Below are positions 7,199 through 13,550 of a DNA stretch of 35,553 nucleotides, one piece after another (within the stretch, counting starts at the first letter, position 1; every line of letters begins with the position of its first letter). The DNA comes from Minisyncoccia bacterium (GTDB lineage Bacteria > Patescibacteriota > Minisyncoccia > Phycocordibacterales > CALRBL01): the NCBI GenBank assembly GCA_038227435.1, contig JBBRPW010000002.1, positions 1 to 35,553 of the forward strand. The letters run 5' to 3'. A model generated the notes under the pieces. It searched no databases and was not told the DNA's origin. It saw nothing but the letters and a program-made list of their open reading frames with translations. A program made the position numbers and the translations under genes.

Positions 7199-7969
7199 AT
7201 GAATATGACAATAAATACCAAAGGGGTTTATCAAATAAAAGACTCTGATCTATTTTTTGTTGCTAACAATACTGCTCCAGCATCTACTCAAAAGCAATAT
7301 GTTTTAACAATCAAAGATCTTCCAGGAGACGATAAACCGCGTGAAAAACTTTTAGATTCTGGCCCTCATGTATTATCTACTCAAGAACTTCTTGCAATTG
7401 TTTTAACTACAGGAACAAAAAAAGAAGAGTTGTTGAGTATGAGCAAACGTCTCATCAAAGATTATGGCGAAAAAAATATCATGACTGAAACTGATGCAAA
7501 AAAAGTTTCGGTTGAGTACGATATTCCACTAGTAAAAGCTTGCCAAATTGTTGCATGTGCAGAACTTGGAAAACGTTTTTATAAAAAACCCGAAGTAGGC
7601 CTTGCGGTAATTCGAACTCCTAAAGATGTGTTCGATCACGTACGTGATATGAGAGATCTTCCAAAGGAGCATCTCCGAGGTATTTATCTCGATACTCATA
7701 ATAGAGTAATTCACGAAGAGTATATTTCAATTGGAACAATTAATTCAAATATTGTTCATGCACGGGAAGTATTTCGGGCTGCAATTGAATATAATGCGGC
7801 AGCTATTGTATTAGTGCATAATCATCCTTCAGGAATTGTTACTCCAAGTGATGCCGACTTTGCAATTACAAATCAACTCATCGCTGCAGGGCGAATTGTC
7901 GGAATTAATGTACTCGACCACATTATAGTTACTAAAACTGAGTACCAAAGCATCGAGGCAGAATACTAA
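7199..7969 (+). CDS. radC: RadC / UPF0758 JAB-domain protein
   Basis: PREKL...LSTQELLAIVLTTG and JAMM motif HNHPSG...SDAD...LDHIIV. Confidence 0.93.
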   Translation: MNMTINTKGVYQIKDSDLFFVANNTAPASTQKQYVLTIKDLPGDDKPREKLLDSGPHVLSTQELLAIVLTTGTKKEELLSMSKRLIKDYGEKNIMTETDAKKVSVEYDIPLVKACQIVACAELGKRFYKKPEVGLAVIRTPKDVFDHVRDMRDLPKEHLRGIYLDTHNRVIHEEYISIGTINSNIVHAREVFRAAIEYNAAAIVLVHNHPSGIVTPSDADFAITNQLIAAGRIVGINVLDHIIVTKTEYQSIEAEY

Positions 7970-8001
7970 TATCAAAAACTAATCTCTATTTTTATACGTA
8001 T

Positions 8002-8706
8002 ATGGGAAAAATTTCTGTTGTAGCAACACCAATTGGAAACTTAGAAGACATAACACTTCGAGCAATTCGAATTCTTAAAGAGTGTGAAATTATTTTTGCT
8101 GAAGATACACGTCATGCTCGAACACTTTTAAAACATCATGGAATTACAACCGAAGTTCGAAGTTACCACGCTCATACTTCGCTTGAAGGTTTAGAATCTA
8201 TTTTAGAGTTGGTAAAGGGTGGAAAACATATTGCACTTATTACGGATGCAGGAACTCCTGGAATTTCTGATCCGGGAAGTGAATTGGTTCGTGAAGCTCG
8301 AAGACAAATTGAGGGAGTAACAATTGAAGCAATTCCTGGAGCGTCAGCAATTACTGCAGCGCTTTCTGTTGCTGGTTTAATTACAAAAGAGTGGACATTT
8401 TTAGGATTCTTGCCTCATAAAAAAGGACGAATGACATTAATGAATCGAATTGCTGCAGCAGATGATATGGCTATGATTTTTTATGAATCTACGCATCGAA
8501 TTACAAAAGCGTTGCAGGAATTGGAAGAGGCTTTTAATGAACGTGCAAAACAGTTTCCAAATTCAAAACCAAAGCGAGTAATTATAGTTCGTGAAATCTC
8601 TAAAATGTTTGAAGAGGTAATTGATGGAACGGTGGGTGAGGTAAGAGAAGTATTAATGAAGGATGTGAAGAAGCAGAAGGGGGAGTTCGTGGTGATTGTA
8701 GAGTAA
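8002..8706 (+). CDS. rsmI: 16S rRNA (cytidine1402-2'-O)-methyltransferase
   Basis: VATPIGNLEDITLRA, AEDTR, TDAGTPGISDPG, FYESTHR, REISKMFEE, KGEFVV. Confidence 0.97.
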   Translation: MGKISVVATPIGNLEDITLRAIRILKECEIIFAEDTRHARTLLKHHGITTEVRSYHAHTSLEGLESILELVKGGKHIALITDAGTPGISDPGSELVREARRQIEGVTIEAIPGASAITAALSVAGLITKEWTFLGFLPHKKGRMTLMNRIAAADDMAMIFYESTHRITKALQELEEAFNERAKQFPNSKPKRVIIVREISKMFEEVIDGTVGEVREVLMKDVKKQKGEFVVIVE

Positions 8707-8800
8707 TTCGATTTTCCGTTTCAATACCAATATGAGTTAGTTAAAGTACCTAGTTCAATTAGGACGTTTTATACACTCAAGGTTATAACCGTGAATCTTT

Positions 8801-9697
8801 ATGCAAAAGCGTCAACATACAATACCCAAATGTTATCTCGAAAACTTTATTGATAAAAAAGGTTTTTTGTGGGTATTAGATACTAAAAATAATATATTTA
8901 AAATCAAACCAGAGAATATATTAGTTGAGAATCATTTTTATACTATCAAGCTAAAGAACGGTGATAAAAATCTTATAGTGGAGGATACTCTATCAAAGAT
9001 TGAGGGAGCTTATGCAATAATATTCAAGGAAAAAATATCTCAAGATCAGTTTTTAACTGATCAAGAGCGTGCAAAAGTCTCAGTTTTTTATGCCGCTCTT
9101 TTACTAAGGACAAGACCCTATCGGGAAAGCATGAGAAATGCCCTAACTAAACTCAAGACTAATATGGAGGAGTGGAAAAAACAATTTGAGATGATTCCTG
9201 AATCTCAAAAAATAACCTCAACAATTTCTAGTTCTGGAAATACTATTAATATGGAGGAACTTGATTCATACCTCGATAATTTCGACCAAGAACATTCGGC
9301 AAATGTTCTTTTACATCTTCCTGACGTAGCCCAAATTATTTTTAATATGAAATGGTCTATATTAAAGAGCTTGGGAGACGACTTTGTTACTTCAGATGAT
9401 CCATTGGTACTTTTAAGACCAGAGGCACTCAAAAAATATGGATCTAAAGCTATAGGTAGTCAGCCAGGGTTAAGGTACGAAGACGTAGAAGTAACATTAT
9501 CGCTATCAAAGAACCGCTTTTTATTAGCGGGCTGGATTCTTGAAGAGGATTCTTATCTGGAAGTAGATAATGATATGGTCCGGCAGATGAATCACCGGAC
9601 CGTAATCCGATCATCCGAAAGAATAATAACTTCCTCAGAAACTCAAGCTAAAGTCATAAGAGATAGGTATACTGAAACTGTATATGAAAAAAATTAA
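8801..9697 (+). CDS. DUF4238-domain protein
   Basis: N-terminal KRQHTIPKCYLENF, ENHFYT, VEDTLSKIE, and FVTSDDP motifs characteristic of DUF4238. Confidence 0.82.
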   Translation: MQKRQHTIPKCYLENFIDKKGFLWVLDTKNNIFKIKPENILVENHFYTIKLKNGDKNLIVEDTLSKIEGAYAIIFKEKISQDQFLTDQERAKVSVFYAALLLRTRPYRESMRNALTKLKTNMEEWKKQFEMIPESQKITSTISSSGNTINMEELDSYLDNFDQEHSANVLLHLPDVAQIIFNMKWSILKSLGDDFVTSDDPLVLLRPEALKKYGSKAIGSQPGLRYEDVEVTLSLSKNRFLLAGWILEEDSYLEVDNDMVRQMNHRTVIRSSERIITSSETQAKVIRDRYTETVYEKN

Positions 9698-10199
9698 TCT
9701 CGAAGAACTGAATAATGAAGACCTATGGCTCGGATATGCCGATATTCAACAAGAACTTAAAAAGAGAGGTCTGGTTAGAACAAACAACATAGTTGGTGAA
9801 CGTGGTGAGTTTTTAGCTATTGAAACTTATAACTCAATAAGCGGATTACCAAACCTACAAGCTGCTCCAGAAGGAACTCAAAATGTAGATGCTCTAAGTA
9901 GAAAAGGAGAAAGATATAGTATTAAGACTATAAGTGAACCTGGGAGTACAACAGGTGTGTTTTATGGTATTGGAGAAAAAGATGATGGGAATATTCCTGA
10001 AAAGAAATTCGAGTACGTGATTATTGTTCAACTGTATAAAAATTACAGACCTAAGAGAATATTAGAGGTAACATGGGAACAGTTTTTAAAACATAAGAAA
10101 TGGCATAGTACTATGAGAGCTTGGAACCTCAGTGTTACCAAAGCAGTGCTTTCAGATGTAAAGATTATTATGAATTCGGAGTCGATCAGAGAAGAATAA
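9684..10199 (+). CDS. Putative PD-(D/E)XK nuclease-fold protein (DUF6998-like)
   Basis: VGERGEFLA helix, then VDA...YSIKT (E...D...SxK catalytic layout). Overlaps the upstream gene by 14 nt. Confidence 0.6.
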   Translation: MKKINLEELNNEDLWLGYADIQQELKKRGLVRTNNIVGERGEFLAIETYNSISGLPNLQAAPEGTQNVDALSRKGERYSIKTISEPGSTTGVFYGIGEKDDGNIPEKKFEYVIIVQLYKNYRPKRILEVTWEQFLKHKKWHSTMRAWNLSVTKAVLSDVKIIMNSESIREE

Positions 10200-10202
10200 A
10201 GA

Positions 10203-10232
10203 TTGACAAGTAAACGTACGTTCACCTATACT
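10203..10232 (+). promoter_or_regulatory. lexA operon promoter containing a palindromic operator
   Basis: TTGACA (10203-10208), 18-nt spacer, TATACT (10227-10232). The spacer contains near-palindrome GTAAACGTACGTTCAC (10210-10225). Confidence 0.8.
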
Positions 10233-10238
10233 ATAGAT

Positions 10239-10823
10239 ATGAAAAAGGGAGATCAATATGGAGAGTATAAAAATAACATAGGTCGCTTCTACAGTCGTAA
10301 CCGACGTGTACCTACGTACAGTGAAATTATGGACCTTTGTGGCTTTGCATCTAAAAATGCTGCATCTAAATTGGTGCACAAATTAATTGATGATGGATTC
10401 CTCGATAAAGATGTAACTGGAAAAATTATTCCATCTCAAATTGATTCTCCAATAAAAGTGCTCGGTGTTGTTGAAGCTGGATTCGGCGCTCCTGCTGAAG
10501 AAGAAGTGTTGGATACGTTATCGCTCGACGAATATTTAATTGATAATCGGGAAGCTACGTACATGCTCGAAGTAAAAGGAGATTCAATGATTGATGCGGG
10601 AATTATTGAAGGCGACATGGTCTTGGTTGAGCGAACACAAGATTATCATTTAGGTGATATTGTCATTGCAGAAATTGATGGACGATTTACCATGAAATAT
10701 ATTCGAAAAACAGGAAGTGTAATCTGGCTCGAACCCGCCAACAAAGCCTACAAGCCTTTGTATCCAACTGAAGATTTAAAAGTAGTGGCAGTGGTGAAAG
10801 CGGTCATCCGTAAGTATTCATAA
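10239..10823 (+). CDS. lexA: LexA/UmuD-family S24 self-cleaving repressor (wHTH + peptidase)
   Basis: wHTH PTYSEIMDLCGFAS, Ala80-Gly81 site (VLGVVEAGF), Ser116 (GDSM), Lys153 (TMK). Start reassigned to ATG 10239 because TTG 10203 is the -35 box. Confidence 0.88.
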   Translation: MKKGDQYGEYKNNIGRFYSRNRRVPTYSEIMDLCGFASKNAASKLVHKLIDDGFLDKDVTGKIIPSQIDSPIKVLGVVEAGFGAPAEEEVLDTLSLDEYLIDNREATYMLEVKGDSMIDAGIIEGDMVLVERTQDYHLGDIVIAEIDGRFTMKYIRKTGSVIWLEPANKAYKPLYPTEDLKVVAVVKAVIRKYS

Positions 10824-10830
10824 AATAATA

Positions 10831-12153
10831 ATGGAATTAAAATCCAACCAACAACTGTTGAATGAACAGACGCCTTTAGCTGTGCATTCATATCGAAAAT
10901 GTATTCTCCATGTTGATGGCGATTCTTTTTTTGCATCATGCGAGATTGCTCACAATCCTCAGCTACGAGGGAAGCCTGTGGTGACCGGATGGGAAAGAGG
11001 AATTGCTACCTCACTTACCTACGAAGCAAAAAAATTAGGAGTAGTTAGAGGAATGAAAGTATCAGACATCAAAAAGTTTTTTCCTCAAGTAATTGTCATG
11101 GCCTCTCACTACGAACTTTACTCTCTGTATTCACTTCGAATGTACAGCATTGTTCGTCGGTACACTCCTGATATTGAAGAATTTAGTGTCGATGAATGCT
11201 ATGCAGATTTAACTGGACTTCGTATTGTCCACCACTCTACATACGAAGAAATTGCTTTAAAAATTAAACACGATTTAGAAACCGAACTCGGTATGACATT
11301 TTCAATGGGAATTGGTCCTAATAAAACAATTGCAAAATTAGCCTCGAAATATAAAAAACCATCGGGTTTTACTCCGGTTCCCGCAAAGCGCGTCCATATC
11401 TTTTTAGATGGCATGCCTGTTGAAAAAATTTGTGGAGTAGGTCCAAGCACCACTGCTCAATTTAATAAGTTGGGAATTAAAACAGCTCTTGATTTAGCTA
11501 AAAAAAATATGGCGTGGGTCGATGACAATTTAAGTAAACCCTTTAGAGAAATTTGGGCGGAACTCCACGGTGAATTTATTTTTAAATTAAAAACAGGAAG
11601 TGTGCCCGACTACCAATCGATTATGAAGGCTCATACCTTTATTCCAACTCAAGACAAGGAAGTTGTATTTAGTGAAATATCCCGCCATATTGAATCGTTA
11701 TGTATTCGATTAAGGAAATATAAGTTAGGAACGAGTGTTGTTTGCTTATCAATTAAAACTCAGTCGTTTAGTTACAAAAATGTTGATTTATTATTGCCGC
11801 GTCCTACTGCAGTACCTGAAGAGATTTTGCCTCACTTAAGATTAAAGTTTGATTCCTTGTGGAAAAGTTCAATTCAAGGGAAACATATTATTCGAGCGTC
11901 GAGTATTACCCTGGGACATTTGGTAGACATTACAGCCAGACACGAAGATTTGTTTGGAGCATCAAGTAAAGCGGAAAAATTGTATGACGTGTATTCTGCA
12001 ATTGACTCTTTAGCGGGAAAGTTTGGAAGAGGAACAGTGTTTTTAGGATCGAGCTTTAATGCATCTGAGGCCGCAGTAAAAGATTCAAAAAAGATGGGAA
12101 CGTATCACAAGAAAAGGAATTTAGATATTCCGATATTGGGGTGGGTGAGTTAA
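10831..12153 (+). CDS. Y-family translesion DNA polymerase (DinB/UmuC-like)
   Basis: LHVDGDSFFASCE, YEAKKLGV, SVDECYAD, AKLASKYKKPSG, GVGPST; clamp-binding-like HEDLF; IDSLAGKFG. Confidence 0.93.
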   Translation: MELKSNQQLLNEQTPLAVHSYRKCILHVDGDSFFASCEIAHNPQLRGKPVVTGWERGIATSLTYEAKKLGVVRGMKVSDIKKFFPQVIVMASHYELYSLYSLRMYSIVRRYTPDIEEFSVDECYADLTGLRIVHHSTYEEIALKIKHDLETELGMTFSMGIGPNKTIAKLASKYKKPSGFTPVPAKRVHIFLDGMPVEKICGVGPSTTAQFNKLGIKTALDLAKKNMAWVDDNLSKPFREIWAELHGEFIFKLKTGSVPDYQSIMKAHTFIPTQDKEVVFSEISRHIESLCIRLRKYKLGTSVVCLSIKTQSFSYKNVDLLLPRPTAVPEEILPHLRLKFDSLWKSSIQGKHIIRASSITLGHLVDITARHEDLFGASSKAEKLYDVYSAIDSLAGKFGRGTVFLGSSFNASEAAVKDSKKMGTYHKKRNLDIPILGWVS

Positions 12154-13550
12154 TTGCTAAGATTTTTTTTATTTAAAGTTAAAATAAAAGTAACTCCCGT
12201 GTCTTTGATTGAGTTTGTGAAATTAATAGTTCCATTGAATCGATTTTCAATAATCGATTTAGCACCATACAAACCAATACCTAAACCCCCGGTATTTTTC
12301 TTTGTAGTAAAAAACGGATCAAAAATCTTTTCACAAATAGTTAGAGGTATCTTCGGGCCATTATTAAATATTTCTATAAAAACCTCGGTATCATTTTCAT
12401 ATGTCTTAACACGAATAGTTTTATTCTTTGAAATATCATGCAAGGCATCAATACTGTTGCATATGATATTTTTAATGATTTGGTAAAAACAAAGTTCATT
12501 TCCAAAAATGGTCGAATTACTTTTTTCAGTAAACATAATTTCAATATTTAAATTATCAGTTCTGTATTTTTCAAATCTAATCAATTGTTCAATAGAATGG
12601 TCTATATTTAAGTCTATTTTTTCCTCTTCTTGTTTTACACTATTACTAAAGGCACTAAAGAAACTAGTAATCCTTTGTAGTGCAATTCCTACTTCAGATA
12701 AATGATTTTTAATACTAGGTACATTACTTTCCTCGATTTTTTCAACATAAAATTTAAGAGAAGTAAAAGGACTTGCTATATCGTGTAATATTTGAGAAGC
12801 TTTTTTACCGTATGAAATAATTTGCTCATCCCTTCTCAATCTTTCTTGTTCGGAAACCTTAAGCTCTAAAGTTCTTCTTTCTACAATAAATTCTAGATTA
12901 TCCCGCTCTTCCTTTATATTGTCTTCTGAAATGATCAACTTTTTAAGTATCTTGTCTTTCTCTTTGTTAACTAACCAGGAGAGACTCATAACGCCACAAA
13001 AGATAATACTGTAGGTGATAGTGTCTATTATTTCAGGATTTTCTAATCTCCAGTTATTATCTATAGGACCAGCTTTAATTTGATAGTAACCAAGTGTAAT
13101 GATAAAAAGAGTTAGAAAAGCTGTCATTAATAAACCTGATCTTGTTCCCAAGAGAACACTAGTGATTATAATCACCAGAACATATGAAAGGGTAACTGTG
13201 GGGACATCGAACCCCCAATAAATAGCGGTTGTTAAGCTACCAATTAAATATGTCCCTATTAATAACATAGAAGATAAAACAACCAACTTCTTCTTGGTTA
13301 GATAAATACAAAAAAGAAATAACAGTAGGAGAGTTGAAAAAATTTGTATCGTCACTCCATGGTAGGCATAACCAGCAACTATTTTTTTATAAATTACTAG
13401 AAAAAATAATCCTCCGACTATATAGGTTGATATCTTTAGAACAATCAACATCACATGCTCTTTGGAATCTAGAACCTCGGTAGTATAAGTAGGGAAACGA
13501 AAACACTTATTCCAAACATTCCTCACGAGTGTTGCAACAAGCGTTTTCAT
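12150..13550 (-). CDS. Membrane sensor histidine kinase
   Basis: About 6 TM segments, H-box ILHDIASP, N-box NIICNSIDA, NNGPKI, IFDPFFTTK, GLGIGL. Confidence 0.92.
   Translation of the reverse strand: MKTLVATLVRNVWNKCFRFPTYTTEVLDSKEHVMLIVLKISTYIVGGLFFLVIYKKIVAGYAYHGVTIQIFSTLLLLFLFCIYLTKKKLVVLSSMLLIGTYLIGSLTTAIYWGFDVPTVTLSYVLVIIITSVLLGTRSGLLMTAFLTLFIITLGYYQIKAGPIDNNWRLENPEIIDTITYSIIFCGVMSLSWLVNKEKDKILKKLIISEDNIKEERDNLEFIVERRTLELKVSEQERLRRDEQIISYGKKASQILHDIASPFTSLKFYVEKIEESNVPSIKNHLSEVGIALQRITSFFSAFSNSVKQEEEKIDLNIDHSIEQLIRFEKYRTDNLNIEIMFTEKSNSTIFGNELCFYQIIKNIICNSIDALHDISKNKTIRVKTYENDTEVFIEIFNNGPKIPLTICEKIFDPFFTTKKNTGGLGIGLYGAKSIIENRFNGTINFTNSIKDTGVTFILTLNKKNLSN

Follow-up and report, generated by a model that had tools for sequence, protein, structure and literature searches.

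A BisI-family restriction endonuclease homolog and a DUF4238 gene between rsmI and lexA in a Minisyncoccia genome: two known types of defence gene, probably stacked by chance

Introduction

Group I of the BisI family of type IIM restriction endonucleases (BisI, BceYI, Bce95I, Rfl17I, and EsaTMI) consists of small proteins of 150–190 residues with the specificity G5mC^NGC (PMC4926085, PMC8281217); EsaTMI cleaves GCNGC bearing 2–3 m5C (PMC8281217). BisI-type enzymes are orphans by design, for which no methyltransferase is needed (PMC11347163). BisI itself adjoins an inactive C5 methyltransferase, and the 2016 BisI paper states that a C5 methyltransferase is lacking near most homologs. Two members, Bce1273I and Bth171I, cut unmodified DNA. 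Structures are available for the N-terminal domain of NhoI and Eco15I (PDB codes 8rpx, 8q5n, 8q5o, and 8q5m; PMC11347163). For the linkage of methyl-specific nucleases to restriction-modification (R-M) genes there is a precedent in McrBC (PMC2614495). DUF4238 proteins are represented by an Escherichia coli protein (TA007 P2 hotspot, pFR101) whose gene by itself confers protection against T7 and whose molecular function is given as unknown (PMC9122126).

Here, we describe a locus where a DUF4238 gene (gene 1) overlaps a gene for a BisI-family homolog (gene 2). The window, i.e., the whole stretch of DNA analysed, is 35,553 nucleotides long. A preliminary description had interpreted the two genes as a coupled, unnamed defence system, in which gene 2 would encode a PD-(D/E)XK-like nuclease. 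Our comparison with the known systems leads us to conclude that two known types of defence gene have very probably been stacked by chance and are independent, and do not constitute a new two-part system.

Results

Organization and setting of the locus

Gene 1 (8801..9697, + strand) encodes 298 residues and overlaps by 14 nt (9684..9697, + strand) with gene 2 (9684..10199, + strand), which encodes 171 residues. To the left is a host gene, an rsmI-like methyltransferase gene (8002..8706, + strand; Pfam TP_methylase, 3e-32), and to the right are lexA (S24 peptidase) and a gene for a dinB/umuC-like polymerase (10239..12153, + strand; Pfam), both flanks being syntenic in the same-genus genome G001. 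The arrangement of two overlapping ORFs between rsmI and lexA, as given in the preliminary description, is borne out by the sequence and the ORF calls, and a Pfam scan of the 29 window ORFs found neither a DNA methyltransferase nor an integrase; one class I SAM methyltransferase lies 12 kb away. The genome of origin (G000) comprises 622 kb in 42 contigs and is 90.6% complete. Positions 7200–12200 are covered, with one difference and no joints, by a single 9.8-kb contig from a public run, which may be where this DNA originates.

Two features elsewhere in the window are recorded here. The 3′ part of the 16S rRNA gene (1–770) contains, as judged by eye, an AT-rich insertion of ~60 nt near 345–410; such insertions occur commonly in the rRNA genes of this bacterial group. 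Between the 16S gene and tRNA-Ile (2898–2971), an ORF at 1080–1945 (− strand) is GC-rich (57–61% vs 37%), has a codon usage more atypical than that of any other of the 447 ORFs, and is likely a foreign gene.

In G001, the sole same-genus genome, the order pyk-radC-rsmI-lexA-dinB is kept, and the gap between rsmI and lexA (L056:9146-9568) is filled by ~430 nt of unrelated DNA of 50% GC, in which a small ORF on the other strand has no Pfam match. Genes 1 and 2 are absent from the whole of G001, and among 24 relatives no further locus was found where lexA lies within 1.5 kb of rsmI. On the evidence of two genomes only, the rsmI–lexA gap appears to be a variable slot. The sequence becomes similar to that of G001 again precisely from the lexA −35 box onwards, 3 nt past the gene 2 stop codon; no direct repeats of at least 7 nt are found at the slot borders, so there is no target-site duplication.

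The lexA promoter (10203..10232, + strand; −35 at 10203–10208 and −10 at 10227–10232) agrees with the consensus at 11 of 12 positions, encloses a likely LexA box (10212–10223, + strand), and is conserved in G001. Counting that of the window, six of the nine lexA loci scanned have the AAC-N4-GTTC box, which we take to be a LexA operator by the Firmicutes-type consensus. A second lexA-like gene in the same genome (G000:C34 1063-1662, L184) has the same promoter-plus-box motif at 795–825, ~270 nt upstream, and this motif is common to the lexA loci of four relatives. No terminator before lexA had been noted, and none was found in a simple scan of 8600–10400 (+ strand), a type of scan that misses many terminators. 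Read-through into the SOS cassette, as raised in the preliminary description, is accordingly possible, but lexA has its own promoter and does not depend on it.

Codon usage agrees with the foreign origin proposed for the pair. The arginine codons of gene 2 are, as reported, eight AGA, one CGT, and no CGA, compared with 40% CGA and 23% AGA genome-wide, and its AGA share is the highest among the 337 ORFs that have at least eight Arg codons (binomial P about 6e-5, uncorrected for the post hoc choice). In gene 1, 13 of the 24 Ile codons are ATA, vs 15% genome-wide. The whole-gene codon bias is only mildly odd: on a CAI-like scale, the two genes come 40th and 68th from the bottom among 447 ORFs, and lexA and dinB 96th and 100th. 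Their GC content is 34–35% vs 36.7%. Acquisition of both genes from outside is likely.

Gene 2 compared with BisI-family endonucleases

Four PADLOC models for type II methyl-directed restriction enzymes match gene 2, the best of them (mREase_II) over the full length with E = 1.4e-63. Pfam gave only a sub-threshold match to DUF6998, and NCBIfam matched neither gene 1 nor gene 2. The sole sequence matches in the PDB are Eco15I and NhoI (profile to Eco15I, E = 1.7e-5). The AlphaFold model (pLDDT 93.7) consists of one domain with an N-terminal helix (residues 11–27), and its best Foldseek match is the NhoI–DNA complex (E = 9e-11, TM 0.73, r.m.s.d. 2.2); the top ten PDB rows are all NhoI or Eco15I, followed by PvuII. 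HMM, PADLOC, and structure searches had been suggested as checks in the preliminary description, which made its proposal depend on a nuclease fold. Such a fold, of the PD-(D/E)XK type, was found by the structure search with the predicted model, and the assignment to the characterised BisI family by PADLOC, fold, and Group I signature means that gene 2 is not an unnamed nuclease.

As for NhoI/Eco15I, the predicted model of gene 2 displays a PvuII-like PD-(D/E)XK fold and an N-terminal dimerization helix, with the catalytic Glu, Asp, and Lys in register. The predicted catalytic residues E42, D69, and S79-I-K81 (S79-x-K81) align with Eco15I E49, D69, and Q79-x-K81; E42, D69, and K81 are invariant across 78 close relatives, and the Eco15I residues aligned with them were mutated in PMC11347163. 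In size, gene 2 falls within the BisI-family range, and its one-domain model has no separate modification-sensor domain. The differences from NhoI/Eco15I lie in the low identity (~20%), in Ser for Gln in the QxK motif, and in Thr-Met for His-Val in the internal methyl pocket.

These departures are Group I features. The signature given for BisI, Bce95I, and BceYI in the legend to Suppl. Fig. S3 of PMC4926085, which includes the R-Y-S-I-K catalytic strand of the gene 2 type, is present in residues 39–115 of gene 2 and in 67 of the 78 relatives when searched as a regular-expression paraphrase of the legend. For the methyl-pocket dipeptide, (H/R)(V/I/T/M), gene 2 has T143-M144 and fits at the second position alone, but Thr-Met is shared by EsaTMI; as written, the motif therefore fails to take in every active member. 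By a hand count from the supplement text, gene 2 and EsaTMI are about 48% identical (76/158 positions) and have the same catalytic motif. On sequence, EsaTMI, which is methyl-directed, would be the closest characterised homolog met. A reading of S79 (for Gln) and T143 (for His) as marks of a new variant was rejected, both being found in Group I BisI enzymes, including the active EsaTMI. Based on the sequence and the predicted model, we assign gene 2 as a homolog of the Group I BisI-family type IIM (5mC-directed) restriction endonucleases, with activity predicted.

The named close homologs are mostly from Paceibacteria/Parcubacteria, which makes a Patescibacterium the likely host. The Patescibacteria-rich clade to which gene 2 belongs differs from the characterised Group I members in being known from sequence alone. 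Two plasmid homologs (39–41% identity) look like inactive or unmodified-DNA-cutting Group I cases. One is a 169-residue Sinorhizobium meliloti GR4 protein (41% to gene 2), presumably the tested XU-Sme, for which PMC4926085 reports no activity, at a low protein yield; the other is a 164-residue Bacillus protein (39%) in a locus type like that of Bce1273I/Bth171I. No characterised enzyme emerged when the clusters of 10 remote homologs were looked up, and in viral contigs none of 40 candidates for the nuclease was confirmed. Literature searches returned no paper on DUF6998 and, for BisI with Patescibacteria, only unrelated microbiome studies among the matches listed.

No methyltransferase accompanies gene 2, as expected since BisI-type enzymes are orphans by design, and none of the C5, N6/N4, or type I classes (PF00145, PF01555, and PF02384) was found above cut-off in the 90.6% complete G000 assembly. 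A cognate methyltransferase, adjacent or elsewhere in the genome, as in orthodox type II R-M systems, is thus not found in G000. GCNGC is not avoided there (O/E 1.00–1.09).

Gene 1 compared with the E. coli DUF4238 system

The DUF4238 identity of gene 1 stands, with a match to PF14022 over profile positions 1–280 of 281 (residues 4–280 of gene 1; E = 6.3e-39; 134.5 bits vs a cut-off of 27), and 108 homologs were collected at 37–75% identity. As for the E. coli system (PMC9122126), gene 1 belongs to the Pfam family over its whole length, is similar in size, and has motifs that are co-linear by eye. The E. coli gene resides in a P2 prophage, whereas gene 1 occupies a chromosomal slot of a Patescibacteria-like genome and has no PADLOC match. 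By analogy, gene 1 is likely a stand-alone anti-phage gene. The defence role proposed for each gene can also be considered likely by analogy, for gene 1 through the DUF4238 family and for gene 2 through the BisI family.

The gene 1 model is confident (pLDDT 88.5). Foldseek gave no match at E ≤ 0.001, the best VIA hit (Z 5.9) covered a helical hairpin alone, so that no solved structure is matched, and an Atlas search returned DUF4238 clusters only; the lack of a structural match does not make the fold new. No DUF4238 match was obtained in phage records, and a nuclease partner is absent from the titles and abstracts among the literature matches listed for DUF4238. A longer DUF4238 form, with open frames of 416–438 residues and the Pfam match split by an insertion, occurs in several genomes of the order (L077-L080, L084-L088).

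Co-occurrence of the two genes

The two genes were not found together in any set examined. Around 30 loci of nuclease relatives (52–89% identity), with up to 5 kb on each side, no DUF4238 was detected by tblastn, by Pfam in 114 neighbours, or by a six-frame profile search. Conversely, no nuclease lies near the DUF4238 relatives in 80 metagenome loci (the best 80 of 190), 63 of which offer at least 600 nt downstream. A sample of 300 other genomes of the order contains DUF4238 in 21, the nuclease in three (also counted among the 30 nuclease loci), and both in none; for 400 genomes of the phylum, the corresponding numbers are 12, three, and none. Because both genes are rare and chance predicts the same, the genome-level zero is weak alone, and the weight rests on the locus-level counts. 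For an obligate pair, DUF4238 would be expected in all six nuclease genomes sampled; it is absent from each, including those of the two closest nuclease relatives (85% and 89% identity). Nor was a nuclease–DUF4238 fusion present in 20 of the longer nuclease homologs, chosen among the 150 best-ranking representatives. The preliminary description had itself held that genes that never co-occur elsewhere would speak against a coupled pair, and neither conserved adjacency nor fusion was found.

The 14-nt overlap is uninformative in this respect, since genes for this nuclease commonly touch or overlap their upstream neighbour, whichever it is. With automated start choice, no more than 30 nt separate the nuclease start from the preceding same-strand stop in 20 of 29 scorable loci; in eight of the 29 the two genes overlap, and the upstream genes are varied. 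Of 39 homologs scored, 35 have a longer tail than gene 1, and the final codons of gene 1 are supplied by the start of gene 2; this suggests that the two genes were joined end to end with no spacer.

Genomic company of each family

A C5 methyltransferase is encoded within two ORFs of the nuclease in 18 of the 30 loci. Eight of these 18 also have a recognisable type II enzyme (HpaII, HinP1I, Eco47II, or LlaMI families) and six have Vsr. A Vsr-like repair role for gene 2 was dropped, as Vsr itself adjoins the nuclease in these six. No amino methyltransferase was found among the 114 neighbours of the 30 loci; a regular-expression count, a rough cross-check, recovered 15 of the 18 C5 loci and likewise no amino-methyltransferase match in the 30. 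In the remaining 12 loci no C5 methyltransferase is near. Besides the 18, three loci are defence-like, with a Schlafen-type helicase and a MazG-like gene in two and MazF in one. In the first two (L006:2871-4997 and L008:2847-4997), a Schlafen-group-3 helicase fused to an S24 (LexA-type) peptidase follows the MazG-like gene, immediately upstream of the BisI-like gene. In another locus (L018:574-2241), a single ORF with RadC/JAB and C5 methyltransferase domains is followed by an HpaII-family enzyme and then by the BisI-like gene.

For DUF4238, 99 of 126 neighbouring ORFs were scanned from 41 of the best 47 loci, after near-duplicates, short ORFs, and neighbourless loci were dropped. An R-M gene lies within two ORFs in 11 of the 41 loci, eight of them of type I, often in the order hsdS-DUF4238-hsdR, and a C5 domain is near in one. 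In type I R-M operons, the position right behind hsdS or in front of hsdR is repeatedly occupied by a DUF4238 relative (L113, L114, L116, L119-L122). In L094:2078-3940, LexA DNA-binding and S24 domains are fused to an N6/N4 methyltransferase that adjoins an MvaI/BcnI enzyme and DUF4238. Both genes are thus passengers of R-M loci, but of different ones.

As for McrBC, for which PMC2614495 describes modification-dependent nucleases in or beside R-M or methyltransferase genes, the BisI-like genes adjoin such genes. The partners of McrBC are mostly type I/IIG adenine methyltransferases, whereas those of the BisI clade are C5 enzymes. This 18-to-0 bias over amino methyltransferases, which extends over several R-M layouts, is contrary to the statement in the 2016 BisI paper, C5 methyltransferases being adjacent more often than reported there. 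Since the relatives are kin and not independent, the C5 linkage is a lead and not a test.

Discussion

Based on the similarity to Group I enzymes and the predicted model, we expect the gene 2 protein most likely to be a homodimer that would bind and cut a putative GCNGC target with two or more 5-methyl (or hydroxymethyl) cytosines, using a Mg-dependent site formed by E42, D69, and S79-x-K81. Cytosine-modified DNA of phages or plasmids would thereby be destroyed and the host, whose assembly shows no C5 methyltransferase, spared. Neither a partner nor a methyltransferase should be needed. Gene 1 likely acts alone, like the E. coli DUF4238 gene. The overlap likely stems from the spacerless joining of two genes, with shared transcription at most.

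The main alternative is the coupled system of the preliminary description, in which DUF4238 would be the sensor of infection that either activates or restrains the nuclease, the two forming a sensor/effector or toxin/antitoxin pair. The overlap, the shared strand, the foreign character of both genes, and their position in one slot are what such a system would display. The same overlap loses its meaning when the nuclease gene is as a rule tightly coupled to upstream genes of many kinds, and the zero co-occurrence in 30 and 80 loci, the six nuclease genomes without DUF4238, and the 20 longer homologs without the domain are difficult to reconcile with a functional pair. Furthermore, the characterised members of both families act alone. 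We therefore regard coupling as very improbable. Even less can be said for a selected rewiring of the SOS cassette, where read-through from the insertion would raise basal lexA–dinB transcription. The scan without a + strand terminator and the 3 nt between the gene 2 stop and the −35 box would allow it, but terminators are often missed by such scans, the lexA promoter and its box are intact and conserved where both genes are absent, and more LexA should, we infer, tighten repression and not induce; an effect of this kind has scarcely any probability.

A different question is whether gene 2 is methyl-directed at all. It could be relaxed or methylation-blocked, so that it nicks or cuts unmodified DNA as do Bth171I, Bce1273I, and VarFI, or it could be the cognate enzyme of the neighbouring C5 methyltransferases, surviving here as a low-activity orphan. 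Relaxed Group I members exist, and the proximity of C5 methyltransferases in 18 of 30 relatives, six of them also with Vsr, would fit a cognate enzyme. In eight loci, however, the C5 methyltransferase already has a recognisable cognate enzyme of the HpaII, HinP1I, Eco47II, or LlaMI family. In 12 of the 30 loci, as in G000, no C5 methyltransferase lies near, and yet the gene has stayed intact, with conservation of up to 89%. EsaTMI, the closest of the characterised homologs compared, is moreover methyl-directed. On balance, a relaxed or blocked enzyme is improbable, and methyl-directed cleavage by an independent gene 2 remains our preferred reading.

With regard to the C5 linkage, we tentatively consider that the Patescibacteria-rich BisI clade could be a selected accessory of 5mC-type R-M loci, tolerating the marks of its partner and cutting cytosine-modified phage DNA that the partner enzyme cannot. 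Gene 2 would then be a copy that left such a locus, and DUF4238 would have no part in it. We hold this to be rather doubtful. If true, it would amount to a two-layer, cytosine-specific defence of simple layered design that could readily be put to the test.

The locus adds one BisI homolog and one DUF4238 gene to the kinds already known, and gives no special handle on the DUF4238 mechanism. For the organism, retention of a likely methyl-directed nuclease by an ultra-small genome in which no DNA methyltransferase is detectable suggests pressure from cytosine-modified invaders.
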